NCBI GenBank assembly: GCA_000002435.2
Contig: AACB03000015.1
Direction: 5' to 3' (one strand)
Source: Giardia intestinalis
Lineage: Eukaryota
Length of the DNA: 3,464 nt
A program made the translations under genes and the position numbers. Positions 1 to 3,464 of the stretch are shown in pieces. Under the pieces are notes generated by a model. The model searched no databases. It saw only the letters and a list, made by a program, of their open reading frames with translations, and was not told the DNA's origin. Numbering within the stretch: position 1 is the stretch's first letter; every line of letters starts with the position of its first letter.

Positions 1-221
1 GCGGCCCCAACGACCAGACGTGCCTGGACTGCAAGACTCCTGGCGAGAACGTGCAGCTCGATAAAGAAAGCTGCGGCCCCACCTGCCCGCAGAACTCCTC
101 CCCCAACCAAACGTCTGCGAGTGCAACCCGGGATTCAACCTGAACGATAGAAAAGACGCGTGCGAGGCGGTTGCCAACACAAACTGCGCACAAGAGCTGC
201 AGAATGCGGGCTGCAAGACGT
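1..221 (+). repeat. Repeat copy 1, 221 bp, 5'-truncated by the window edge in phase.
   Basis: One deletion in the A-run 109-111 (A3 versus canonical A4). A local aaaga to aagaa change at 65-69 turns canonical LDKR into LDKE in frame. Confidence 0.9.
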
Positions 222-3200
222 GCGGCCCAACGACCAGACGTGCCTGGACTGCAAGACTCCTGGCGAGAACGGTGCAGCTCGATAAAAGAAGCTGCGGCCC
301 ACCTGCCCGCAGAACTCCTCCCCCAACCAAAACGTCTGCGAGTGCAACCCGGGATTCAACCTGAACGATAGAAAAGACGCGTGCGAGGCGGTTGCCAACA
401 CAAACTGCGCACAAGAGCTGCAGAATGCGGGCTGCAAGACGTGCGGCCCCAACGACCAGACGTGCCTGGACTGCAAGACTCCTGGCGAGAACGTGCAGCT
501 CGATAAAAGAAGCTGCGGCCCCACCTGCCCGCAGAACTCCTCCCCCAACCAAAACGTCTGCGAGTGCAACCCGGGATTCAACCTGAACGATAGAAAAGAC
601 GCGTGCGAGGCGGTTGCCAACACAAACTGCGCACAAGAGCTGCAGAATGCGGGCTGCAAGACGTGCGGCCCCAACGACCAGACGTGCCTGGACTGCAAGA
701 CTCCTGGCGAGAACGTGCAGCTCGATAAAAGAAGCTGCGGCCCCACCTGCCCGCAGAACTCCTCCCCCAACCAAAACGTCTGCGGAGTGCAACCCGGGAT
801 TCAACCTGAACGATAGAAAGACGCGTGCGAGGCGGTTGCCAACACAAACTGCGCACAAGAGCTGCAGAATGCGGGCTGCAAGACGTGCGGCCCCAACGAC
901 CAGACGTGCCTGGACTGCAAGACTCCTGGCGAGAACGTGCAGCTCGATAAAAGAAGCTGCGGCCCACCTGCCCGCAGAACTCCTCCCCCAACCAAACGTC
1001 TGCGAGTGCAACCCGGGATTCAACCTGAACGATAGAAAAGACGCGTGCGAGGCGGTTGCCAACACAAACTGCGCACAAGAGCTGCAGAATGCGGGCTGCA
1101 AGACGTGCGGCCCCAACGACCAGACGTGCCTGGACTGCAAGACTCCTGGCGAGAACGTGCAGCTCGATAAAAGAAGCTGCGGCCCCACCTGCCCGCAGAA
1201 CTCCTCCCCCAACCAAAACGTCTGCGAGTGCAACCCGGGATTCAACCTGAACGATAGAAAAGACGCGTGCGAGGCGGTTGCCAACACAAACTGCGCACAA
1301 GAGCTGCAGAATGCGGGCTGCAAGGACGTGCGGCCCCAACGGACCAGACGTGCCTGGACTGCAAGACTCCTGGCGAGAACGTGCAGCTCGATAAAAGAAG
1401 CTGCGGCCCCACCTGCCCGCAGAACTCCTCCCCAACCAAAACGTCTGCGAGTGCAACCCGGGATTCAACCTGAACGATAGAAAAGACGCGTGCGAGGCGG
1501 TTGCCACACCAAACTGCGCACAAGAGCTGCAGAATGCGGGCTGCAAGACGTGCGGCCCCAACGACCAGACGTGCCTGGACTGCAGACTCCTGGCCGAGAA
1601 CGTGCAGTCGATAAAAGAAGCTGCGGCCCCACCTGCCCGCAGAACTCCTCCCCCAACCAAAACGTCTGCGAGTGCAACCCGGGATTCAACCTGAACGATA
1701 GAAAAGACGCGTGCGAGGCGGTTGCCAACACAAACTGCGCACAAGAGCTGCAGAATGCGGGCTGCAAGACGTGCGGCCCCAACGACCAGACGTGCCTGGA
1801 CTGCAAGACTCCTGGCGAGAACGTGCAGCTCGATAAAAGAAGCTGCGGCCCCACCTGCCCGCAGAACTCCTCCCCAACCAAAACGTCTGCGAGTGCAACC
1901 GGGATTCAACTTGAACGATAGAAAAGACGCGTGCGAGGCGGTTGCCAACACAAACTGCGCACAAGAGCTGCAGAATGCGGGCTGCAAGACGTGCGGCCCC
2001 AACGACCAGACGTGCCTGGACTGCAAGACTCCTGGCGAGAACGTGCAGCTCGATAAAAGAAGCTGCGGCCCCACCTGCCCGCAGAACTCCTCCCCCAACC
2101 AAAACGTCTGCGAGTGCAACCCGGGATTCAACCTGAACGATAGAAAAGACGCGTGCGAGGCGGTTGCCAACACAAACTGCGCACAAGAGCTGCAGAATGC
2201 GGGCTGCAAGACGTGCGGCCCAACGACCAGACGTGCCTGGACTGCAAGATCCTGGCGAGAACGTGCAGCTCGATAAAAGAAGCTGCGGCCCCACCTGCCC
2301 GCAGAACTCCTCCCCAACCAAAACGTCTGCGAGTGCAACCCGGGATTCAACCTGAACGATAGAAAGACGCGTGCGAGGCGGTTGCCAACACAAACTGCGC
2401 ACAAGAGCTGCAGAATGCGCGGGCTGCAAGACGTGCGGCCCCAACGACCAGACGTGCCTGGACTGCAAGACTCCTGGCGAGAACGTGCAGCTCGATAAAA
2501 GAAGCTGCGGCCCACCTGCCCGCAGGCTCCCCCCCAACCAAAACGTCTGCGAGTGCAACCCGGGATTCAACCTGAACGATAGAAAAGACGCGTGCGAGGC
2601 GGTTGCCAACACAAACTGCGCACAAGAGCTGCAGAATGCGGGCTGCAAGACGTGCGGCCCCAACGACCAGACGTGCCTGGACTGCAAAGACTCCTGGCGA
2701 GAACGTGCAGCTCGATAAAAGAAGCTGCGGCCCCACCTGCCCGCAGAACTCCCCCCCAACCAAAACGTCTGCGAGTGCAACCCGGGATTCAACCTGAACG
2801 ATAGAAAAGACGCGTGCGAGGCGGTTGCCAACACAAACTGCGCACAAGAGCTGCAGAATGCGGGCTGCAAGACGTGCGGCCCCAACGACCAGACGTGCCT
2901 GGACTGCAAGACTCCTGGCGAAACGTGCAGCTCGATAAAAGAAGCTGCGGCCCCACCTGCCGCAGAACTCCTCCCCAACCAAAACGTCTGCGAGTGCAAC
3001 CCGGGATTCAACCTGAACGATAGAAAAGACGCGTGCGAGGCGGTTGCCACACAAATGCGCACAAGAGCTGCAGAATGCGGGCTGCAAGACGTGCGGCCCC
3101 AACGACCAGACGTGCCTGGACTGCAAGATCCTGGCGAGAAACGTGCAGCTCGATAAAGAGCTGCGGCCCCACCTGCCCGCAGAACTCCTCCCCAACCAAA

Positions 3201-3464
3201 ACGTCTGCGAGTGCAACCCGGGATTCAACTGAACGATAGAAAAGAGCGTGCGAGGCGGTTGCCAACACAAACTGCGCACAAGAGCTGCAGAATGCGGGCT
3301 GCAAGACGTGCGGCCCCAACGACCAGACGTGCCTGGACTGCAAGACTCCTGGCGGAACGTGCAGCTCGATAAAAGAAGCTGCCGGCCCCACCTGCCCGCA
3401 GAACTCCTCCCCCAACCAAAACGTCTGCGAGTTGCAACCCGGGATTCAACCTGAACGATAGAAA
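1..3464 (+). CDS. Internal fragment, 5' and 3' partial, of a gene for a large tandem-repeat cysteine-rich protein with 74-aa EGF-like modules of 10 Cys each. The frame is interrupted by about 43 indels, which are either sequencing errors in an intact gene or a degenerate, pseudogenised array.
   Basis: In the canonical unit only one + frame lacks stops. The +1 frame has TGA in aacctgaacg, and the +2 frame has TAA in cgataaaag and TAG in cgatagaaa. The open frame shows GC3 of about 80%, with 59 of 74 third positions G or C, and an invariant TGC Cys codon ten times per unit. It carries the EGF_2-type pattern CECNPGFNLNDRKDAC. The longest uninterrupted in-frame stretches of this frame are about 300-784, 996-1324, 1609-1872 and 1900-2219. 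The window begins in codon phase 3 with gc|ggc|ccc|aac. No start or stop of the real gene lies in the window. Confidence 0.6.
222..442 (+). repeat. Repeat copy 2, 221 bp.
   Basis: Deletion of c in run 226-228; insertion of g at 271-272; deletion of c in run 298-300. Confidence 0.9.
443..664 (+). repeat. Repeat copy 3, 222 bp, canonical unit with an intact 74-codon frame.
   Basis: Identical to copy 10 (1993-2214). Translates in frame, with codon starts at 442, 445 and so on, to CGPNDQTCLDCKTPGENVQLDKRSCGPTCPQNSSPNQNVCECNPGFNLNDRKDACEAVANTNCAQELQNAGCKT. Confidence 0.95.
665..886 (+). repeat. Repeat copy 4, 222 bp, with a compensating indel pair.
   Basis: Insertion of g at 784-785; deletion of a in run 817-819. 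The shifted stretch between them contains an in-frame TAG at 814-816, which is the end of track ORF 493..816. Confidence 0.9.
887..1106 (+). repeat. Repeat copy 5, 220 bp.
   Basis: Deletion in C-run 963-965; deletion in A-run 994-996. Confidence 0.9.
1107..1329 (+). repeat. Repeat copy 6, 223 bp.
   Basis: Single insertion of g at 1324-1325 (caaggacg versus caagacg). Confidence 0.9.
1330..1551 (+). repeat. Repeat copy 7, 222 bp.
   Basis: Insertion of g at 1341-1342; deletion in C-run 1430-1433 (C4 versus C5). ccaacacaaa becomes ccacaccaaa at 1504-1513, a deletion of a plus an insertion of c, or two substitutions. Confidence 0.88.
1552..1772 (+). repeat. Repeat copy 8, 221 bp.
   Basis: Deletion of a at 1584 (tgcagactcc); insertion of c at 1594-1595 (tggccgag); deletion of c at 1607/1608 (gcagtcgat). 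Confidence 0.9.
1773..1992 (+). repeat. Repeat copy 9, 220 bp.
   Basis: Deletion in C-run 1872-1875; deletion in C-run 1899-1900 (caaccggg). C to T substitution at 1911, which is CTG to TTG and synonymous for Leu in the coding frame. Confidence 0.9.
1993..2214 (+). repeat. Repeat copy 10, 222 bp, canonical.
   Basis: Identical to copy 3. Confidence 0.95.
2215..2434 (+). repeat. Repeat copy 11, 220 bp.
   Basis: Deletions in C-run 2219-2221, at 2249/2250 (aagatcctgg), in C-run 2312-2315 and in A-run 2363-2365. A 2-bp insertion at 2418-2420 (gaatgcgcgggc). Confidence 0.88.
2435..2653 (+). repeat. Repeat copy 12, 219 bp.
   Basis: Deletion in C-run 2511-2513. At 2523-2535, cagaactcctccccc is replaced by caggctccccccc, a net loss of 2 bp together with an a to g change. 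Confidence 0.85.
2654..2875 (+). repeat. Repeat copy 13, 222 bp.
   Basis: Insertion in A-run 2686-2688 (tgcaaagac). Loss of t near 2752, so cct ccc cc becomes ccccccc. Confidence 0.88.
2876..3092 (+). repeat. Repeat copy 14, 217 bp.
   Basis: Five single-base deletions: g at about 2921 (ggcgaaacg), C-run 2960-2961, C-run 2973-2976, a at 3049 and c at 3055/3056 (acaaatgcgc). Confidence 0.88.
3093..3309 (+). repeat. Repeat copy 15, 217 bp, the most damaged copy.
   Basis: Deletion at 3128/3129; insertion in A-run 3139-3141; 2 bp lost in 3155-3160 (gataaagagctgc); deletion in C-run 3190-3193; deletion of c at 3229 (caactgaac); deletion of c at 3245/3246 (aagagcgtg). Confidence 0.88.
3310..3464 (+). 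repeat. Repeat copy 16, 155 bp, 3'-truncated by the window edge.
   Basis: Deletion of a at 3354/3355 (ggcggaacg); insertion of c at 3382-3383 (gctgccggc); insertion of t at 3432-3433 (gagttgcaa). Confidence 0.88.

Follow-up and report, generated by a model that had tools for sequence, protein, structure and literature searches.

What does a stretch of DNA encode when it consists of nothing but one repeated unit, and to which gene does it belong? This question is raised by an entire unplaced 3464-bp contig of the Giardia intestinalis ATCC 50803 / WB clone C6 reference assembly, which was analysed here at its full length and is referred to as the window. Our analysis indicates that the window is very probably an inner piece of the repeat ectodomain of a variant-specific surface protein (VSP), and that it represents the same gene as, an allele of, or an unresolved copy of the placed gene XP_037901961.1 (probably vsp13). 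This gene was already annotated in the same assembly, and the assignment itself therefore adds little new biology.

A tandem array carrying the module of a placed VSP gene

Tandem Repeats Finder reported a single head-to-tail array spanning positions 1..3464 (period 222, 15.7 copies, 97% matches, 2% indels, score 6568), with no non-repeat flank at either end of the 3464-bp window. Splitting the array at an anchor sequence gave 16 units of 217-223 nt, the last of them cut off at 155 nt, together with one clean 222-nt consensus. An initial annotation, made from the letters of the window, had described it as one tandem array of at least 15 modules of 222 bp, which agrees with the 15.6 copies found here; the period of exactly 74 codons that it gave applies to the consensus but not to the actual units with their varying lengths. 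SmaI, PstI and MluI, which it had proposed as enzymes cutting once per unit, each have one site in the consensus and 15, 16 and 14 sites, respectively, in the window. The array, its units and the module are located as follows.

1..3464, + strand: tandem array, 15.6 copies of a 222-bp unit, very probably the repetitive part of the ectodomain of a Giardia VSP (Tandem Repeats Finder, unit split, and a consensus translation equal to the 13 exact modules of XP_037901961.1)
1, 222, 443, 665, 887, 1107, 1330, 1552, 1773, 1993, 2215, 2435, 2654, 2876, 3093 and 3310, + strand: starts of the DNA units in the register of position 1
385..606, + strand: error-free protein module in its natural register, EAVANTNCAQELQNAGCKTCGPNDQTCLDCKTPGENVQLDKRSCGPTCPQNSSPNQNVCECNPGFNLNDRKDAC (from translation; register taken from the single-module VSP P0002 and from XP_037901961.1)

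The module EAVANTNCAQELQNAGCKTCGPNDQTCLDCKTPGENVQLDKRSCGPTCPQNSSPNQNVCECNPGFNLNDRKDAC is 74 aa long and contains 10 Cys and 2 CXXC per unit, one CXXC lying across the module junction. The protein search with the 74-aa consensus that the initial annotation had recommended was carried out with phmmer, exhaustively over 1.84 billion representative proteins, and it retrieved a 1029-aa protein with the identical module, KAE8303776.1/XP_037901961.1 (P0004; UniProt A0A644F577), annotated as 'VSP' and matched at 99% identity in 7 stretches. This protein comes from the same WB strain and the same assembly (AACB03), where its gene lies on a 2,761,001-bp (2.76-Mb) scaffold. It is composed of a 22-aa leader MLVGFLLVCATVLAKYSGKTSS, 13 exact copies of EAVANTNCAQELQNAGCKTCGPNDQTCLDCKTPGENVQLDKRSCGPTCPQNSSPNQNVCECNPGFNLNDRKDAC and a tail with a transmembrane helix and CRGKA, and at the protein level the consensus module of the window equals all 13 of its modules. 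The repeats account for 962/1029 residues and constitute nearly all of the protein that is exposed, because the leader is followed by the 13 modules and these by a short tail.

A canonical VSP comprises a leader, a Cys-rich ectodomain, a transmembrane helix and a CRGKA tail (PMC2996952, PMC7000408). With regard to the ectodomain, the module consists of 13.5% Cys and has its 2 CXXC per unit, which compares with about 11-13% Cys and frequent CXXC in VSP ectodomains (PMC2996952), and XP_037901961.1 as a whole contains 133 Cys and 26 CXXC. The placed gene has the C-terminal transmembrane helix followed by CRGKA, and its protein starts with a hydrophobic putative leader, MLVGFLLVCATVLAK, common to the annotated VSPs P0002, P0005 and P0007; all these elements are absent from the repeat-only window. 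For the name VSP, the annotators of the assembly demanded a SignalP-positive leader (PMC7000408). Searched against Pfam, XP_037901961.1 scored 39.4 bits with PF03302 (VSP; cut-off 31.4), while the repeat consensus alone gave no PF03302 match, because this model draws mostly on the conserved C-terminal part. Assignment to the high cysteine membrane protein (HCMP) class, i.e., Cys-rich type I membrane proteins with a tail other than CRGKA (PMC7000408), was rejected, as XP_037901961.1 ends in CRGKA. The proposal of the initial annotation that the array is coding, Cys-rich and part of a large surface antigen with repeats kept identical is thus matched by the placed VSP, and the module, which it had been unable to link to a named family, can be assigned as the ectodomain unit of the Giardia VSP family, given that XP_037901961.1 scores above the PF03302 threshold.

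The outcome differed between search methods. A word-indexed search of 5.8 billion proteins, queried with the consensus and with 2- and 9-sequence profiles, did return single-module relatives but never XP_037901961.1, P0005 or P0007, and the multi-repeat VSPs surfaced only in the exhaustive HMMER search. The word index apparently misses highly repetitive proteins, and an early impression that no other protein carries the repeat was dropped after exhaustive phmmer had found XP_037901961.1.

Reading frames and coding evidence

In the raw window, each plus-strand frame contains 14-18 stops and the longest open plus-strand stretch measures 297 codons, with the longest open stretches, up to 662 codons, lying on the minus strand. 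The consensus unit has three stop-free frames out of six, namely the Cys-rich sense frame and two antisense frames, and the statement of the initial annotation that only one strand and frame is open therefore had to be abandoned. Among shuffled units, 54% had at least one open frame and about 2% had at least three, so that openness of a frame is weak evidence of coding, and the coding assignment is better taken from homology than from frame openness. The sense frame of the consensus contains no stop, its GC content at third codon positions (GC3) is 0.80 and its Cys codons are TGC in 10/10 cases, in line with the 80% GC3 and the invariant TGC initially reported. A positional GC of 0.80 was reached by 0/5000 shuffles of the unit; chance, which had been named as a possible source of the frame signal, would account for an open frame more readily than for this GC3.

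The longest mechanically called open reading frames are antisense, e.g., 578-2515 (645 aa) and 1686-3062 (458 aa) on the minus strand, and one stop-free antisense frame of the consensus also has a GC3 of 0.80. A Pfam search with the two open antisense frames yielded sub-threshold noise only, and these frames seem to arise incidentally from a sense frame that is poor in stops and rich in GC3. On the plus strand, frame tracing against the consensus protein recovered the following clean stretches, between which 1-nt indels break the true frame.

298..783, + strand: longest uninterrupted true-frame stretch, 162 aa
995-1324, + strand: clean true-frame stretch, 110 aa
1899-2222, + strand: clean true-frame stretch, 108 aa

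Differences between copies as long-read errors

Across the whole window, we catalogued 48 departures from the consensus, comprising 33 one-base deletions, 13 one-base insertions and 2 substitutions. The same base adjoins the indel in 36/46 cases, and the indel frequency per homopolymer run increases with run length, from 0.9% at length 1 over 2% at length 2, 3.8% at length 3 and 13.9% at length 4 to 31% at length 5. Units 3 and 10 are free of errors. The two substitutions are the following.

1911, + strand: C>T, which turns the Leu codon CTG of the sense frame into TTG (synonymous; catalogue of indels and substitutions against the consensus)
~2526, + strand: A>G within an indel cluster, probably an error

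The indel-to-substitution ratio of 23:1, together with the dependence on homopolymer length, identifies the differences as those of unpolished long-read sequence and not as evolutionary divergence; the underlying copies are probably identical. The near-perfect identity between copies asserted in the initial annotation was accordingly correct in direction but understated, considering that 46/48 differences are 1-nt indels; that these are long-read errors, which break the frame about 46 times, had been missed there. Error events per 500-bp bin number 6, 4, 3, 8, 6 and 9, followed by 12 in the last 464 bp, and this uneven density suggests that read support thins towards the 3' end of the contig.

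The history of the assembly offers a setting for these errors. The WB genome was assembled from PacBio RS II reads with HGAP and polished with Quiver, and Canu was used to assemble anew the reads that did not map to the five chromosome scaffolds (PMC7000408). Homopolymer frameshifts from PacBio were noticed by its authors and fixed only where Illumina pile-ups backed the change (PMC7000408). The contig at hand was never effectively polished and retains about 1.4% homopolymer-biased 1-nt indels that disrupt the frame; short reads, which we infer not to be uniquely placeable in a perfect 222-bp array, would explain why it was left unrepaired.

Two annotated gene models are frameshift chimeras

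Two gene models are annotated on the contig, and both map exactly onto the window; P0001 was among the proteins retrieved with the consensus, and P0003 belongs to its cluster.

647..1480, + strand: KAE8301199.1/XP_037901525.1 (P0003), 'High cysteine protein', 277 aa, with 122/277 residues in the true VSP frame
1755..2276, + strand: KAE8301200.1/XP_037901526.1 (P0001), 'High cysteine protein', 173 aa, with 108/173 residues in the true VSP frame

XP_037901525.1 and XP_037901526.1 both start at an out-of-frame ATG (MRAARRAAPTTRR...) and then drift between frames at the indel errors. They are frameshift chimeras, i.e., annotation artefacts, and have entered UniProt as A0A644EXM5 and A0A644EYM0. 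High cysteine proteins form a residual class that is Cys-rich and lacks a transmembrane domain and a CRGKA tail (Xu et al. 2020). The two models are fragments, and the complete gene with this repeat has both a transmembrane helix and CRGKA, which makes the label an artefact of truncation and frameshifts.

Relatives and predicted structure of the module

A single copy of the module is found in very small VSPs. XP_001705829.1 (P0002), 142 aa long with 14 Cys and 2 CXXC, matches the module at 63% identity over its full length (E = 2e-28), and it fits the entry vsp113 / GL50803_26894 in the table of Adam 2010. In this mini-VSP the whole ectodomain is one 10-Cys module, placed between a leader MLVGFLLVCATVLAK and a tail as in XP_037901961.1; mini-VSPs differ from the repeat VSP in having one module instead of 13 to at least 16, and the sequences have diverged. 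Single-module VSPs (P0002, P0014-P0024) occur in the WB, P15, DH and GS-B isolates as well as in ENA and Logan assemblies, and the ten Cys positions are invariant or nearly so across these relatives. VSPs of this very small format, with 127-166 aa made up of a leader, one 10-Cys module and a transmembrane-CRGKA end, were thus seen in assemblages A (WB, DH), B (GS-B) and E (P15) and in metagenome assemblies. An exact 44-mer of the 222-bp unit had 0 matches in metagenome contigs.

Other VSPs of WB hold tandem versions of the module of 69-76 aa, as illustrated by P0005 with three 69-aa repeats. vsp3 (P0007 and P0013, GL50803_137740 / XP_001709860; 228-nt repeat) has 451 aa in the old WB annotation and 598 aa in the new one; from the old to the new annotation its Cys count rose from 46 to 74 and its CXXC count from 8 to 14, the long-read assembly having altered the repeat number. 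Tandem-repeat VSPs look like amplifications of a minimal single-module unit.

For the fold of the module, an AlphaFold2 model was computed for window positions 385-666 from a 16-sequence alignment of VSP relatives. The model has a mean pLDDT (predicted local distance difference test score) of 80.9, with about 90 for residues 10-75, and it shows one short helix and six short strands arranged as a small disulfide-rich stack of beta-hairpins. A Foldseek search against the PDB gave no fold match at E <= 0.001, with TM-scores of 0.36-0.42. Its best matches were to RSPO2 Fu1-Fu2 (E = 0.08-0.3, probability 0.85-0.89, root-mean-square deviation 2.5-3.0 A over 55-58 columns), followed by Cys-rich domains of the insulin receptor and of ErbB receptors and then by EGF domains of factors IX and X. 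At the sequence level, a 4-copy query reached 27.1 bits with Pfam cEGF (cut-off 26.6), a score attained only as a sum over repeats, and TNFR_nem was matched with 33.9 bits against a cut-off of 27; a sequence search of the PDB returned marginal EGF matches only (E >= 0.05), the best being a factor IX EGF domain at E = 0.051. The weak cEGF and TNFR_nem matches and the marginal factor IX EGF match all lie on the segment CECNPGFNLNDRKDAC. The predicted module thus appears to resemble the furin-like/EGF-like fold class, as represented by R-spondin Fu1-Fu2, the Cys-rich domains of insulin and ErbB receptors and cEGF; with no significant match to these repeats, the likeness would be one of fold class and not of family membership.

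The placed gene as a candidate for vsp13

Adam et al. 2010 (BMC Genomics 11:424) reported 30 repeat-containing vsp genes in WB. The repeat is 222 nt long in two of them, vsp13 and vsp15, which lie on chromosome 4 and lack GL50803 numbers (PMC2996952). In the same source, vsp13 is entered as LA_TR222 with 8 repeats, 725 aa, 93 Cys, 18 CXXC, an Inr motif and the first position in a linear array, and vsp15 as TR222 with 3 repeats, 300 aa, 33 Cys and 6 CXXC. vsp14, located next to vsp13, has 74 aa, 8 Cys and 2 CXXC and no GL50803 number (PMC2996952). A hypothetical 9-copy version of XP_037901961.1 would contain exactly 93 Cys and 18 CXXC in 733 aa. The placed gene thus resembles vsp13 in its 222-nt period, in its chromosome-4-sized location and in the Cys and CXXC counts of its 9-copy version, and by this arithmetic and context XP_037901961.1 is probably vsp13. 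That vsp13 has no GL50803 number is consistent with the databases containing no old-annotation protein. Phylogenetically, vsp13 belongs to a set of three genes that fall between clade II and clade III, and it groups with vsp3 (PMC2996952); vsp3 (P0007) and XP_037901961.1 share the leader MLVGFLLVCATVLAK. vsp13, vsp14 and vsp15 are numbered consecutively on chromosome 4, and vsp14 is exactly one module long (74 aa). Conceivably, all three are pieces of a single mis-assembled array (9 + 1 + 3 = 13).

Several points weigh against assigning the window to XP_037901961.1 and to vsp13. The identity between window and placed gene was established at the protein level only, and with at least 15.6 copies versus 13 the window is not a simple sub-sequence of the placed gene. 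The 725 aa of vsp13 are 8 aa off the 733 aa expected for nine copies, and the Cys/CXXC arithmetic fits any member of the module class. Moreover, a literature search by protein accessions gave no expression or protein data for the gene.

Tandem-repeat VSPs, homogenised repeats and allelic copy-number variation have been known in Giardia since the late 1980s and 1990s. These genes, the homogenisation of their repeats and the variation in copy number are reviewed in PMC2996952. Repeat-dominated VSPs include vspC5 (105-bp repeat, more than 20 copies), vspA6/CRP170 (195-bp, about 23) and CRP136 (120-bp, about 22), which are built like the 222-bp VSP, with identical Cys-rich repeats arrayed at length between a short leader and a conserved transmembrane-CRGKA end, and differ from it in unit length and sequence. 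In vspC5 the repeats reach the conserved 3' end, as in the placed gene, whereas in vspA6 the array is followed by about 1.3 kb of non-repeat sequence. The repeats of VspA6 are immunodominant, and alleles of vspA6 and of vspC5 vary in repeat number (PMC2996952).

Copy number of the array

The window holds at least 15.6 units, or about 3.48 kb after correction for net deletion, versus 13 units, or about 2.9 kb, in the placed array. Taken at face value, the contig would correspond to a protein of about 1,228 aa or more. The lower bound of 1,150 aa that the initial annotation placed on the gene is in keeping with the 15.6 copies of this leftover contig but not with the placed gene, which has 13 copies and 1029 aa.

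Of the explanations for this discrepancy, the one that fares best, and to which we give an even chance, is that the contig records a longer VSP array that really exists and has at least 16 repeats, owing to an allele, to a subpopulation in the culture or to collapse of the placed array. Such a longer version would refine, rather than compete with, the assignment of the window to the VSP gene. Giardia is tetraploid and carries four genome copies. In favour of a longer version are the 15.6 copies of pure repeat without flanks, compared with 13 in XP_037901961.1, and the consideration that reads with an over-long repeat would align poorly and could have joined the unmapped reads that were later re-assembled (PMC7000408). 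Precedents point in the same direction, as vspA6 and vspC5 have repeat-number alleles and the authors of the vsp catalogue warned that repeat numbers were possibly condensed by the assembler (PMC2996952); from the Sanger to the PacBio assembly, the count for the same gene seemingly went up from 8-9 copies to 13, and vsp3 lengthened from 451 aa to 598 aa. Against it, the residual error of 1.4% implies very low read support for the contig, and a few noisy reads can mis-overlap in a perfect repeat. We propose, tentatively and with slightly less than even confidence, that this VSP has a longer allele or subclone, comprising at least 16 repeats and some 1,230 aa or more, of which the contig is all that the reference assembly retains.

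Rather unlikely, by comparison, is that the extra length is an artefact of a few low-quality reads of the 13-copy array which Canu overlapped out of register. The contig does have the properties of such a product, being tiny, repeat-only and unpolished, with errors of 3-6 per 500 bp early on and 12 in the last 464 bp, and it stems from a second-pass assembly of leftover reads. However, reads lying entirely inside the 2.9-kb array would be expected to map to its placed version, and at a mean read length of about 8.7 kb (3.6 Gb / 411,835 reads; PMC7000408) unique flanks would be present on most reads from the locus.

Still more improbable is a second, paralogous locus with the same 222-bp repeat, such as a pseudo-VSP, a vsp15-like gene or sequence within one of the four assembly gaps. 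Adam 2010 does list another TR222 gene on chromosome 4, vsp15, in addition to the 74-aa vsp14 beside vsp13, but no other protein with a module more than 63% identical was found in the word-indexed and exhaustive searches, in which a further one might be masked by 50% clustering or by the word index, and from which pseudogenes, lacking protein records, are absent. Finally, non-coding satellite DNA with an open frame and GC3 accidental to its composition can be dismissed with near certainty: an open 74-codon frame is indeed not rare at 60% GC, as the three open consensus frames and the 54% of shuffles illustrate, but the period is 3 x 74, no shuffle reached the GC3 of 0.80, the antisense frames match nothing credible in Pfam, the sense translation equals the 13 repeats of an annotated VSP with leader and transmembrane-CRGKA tail, it is 63% identical to the complete ectodomain of a single-module VSP, and the 10-Cys skeleton is kept in VSP homologues of other isolates. 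A surface antigen of a liate or some other protist, a further candidate reading, was dropped once the DNA was known to be from Giardia.

A further observation concerns the placement of the contig. In the published assembly, the genome sequence was digested in silico with MluI and compared with optical maps (figure legend, PMC7000408). MluI (ACGCGT) has one site per unit, with 14 intact in the window, and an array of 222-bp fragments would escape optical mapping; fragmentation by MluI may be one possible reason why the contig was not placed or the array length not checked.

Proposed mechanism and implications

Established VSP biology suggests how such an array might act. Each 10-Cys module would form a compact, disulfide- or metal-stabilised furin/EGF-like unit, and a chain of identical units could give an extended, protease-resistant coat whose repeated epitope would dominate the antibody response. 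One VSP would be expressed per trophozoite, with the expressed gene switched epigenetically. Protease resistance of VSPs is described in PMC6341118, and expression of a single VSP per cell with epigenetic switching in PMC2996952. The homogeneity of the array and its change in copy number may be brought about by ongoing unequal recombination or replication slippage, to which the identical units and the copy number differing between assemblies both point.

For the use of the reference genome, these findings have two consequences. Where the near-identical repeats of a short orphan contig show no differences other than homopolymer indels, these are to be taken as a mark of unpolished long reads and not of divergence, and contig redundancy in the WB reference has swollen the 'High cysteine protein' class by two bogus models, which gives their identification a value for curation. 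With regard to the gene itself, the copy number in the reference is uncertain, and the 13-copy count of XP_037901961.1 is best treated as a lower bound. If the contig does trace a longer allele or subclone, repeat number would be heterogeneous among the four genome copies or in the WB C6 culture, and the surface antigen would vary in length, with the 13-copy gene as one of its states.

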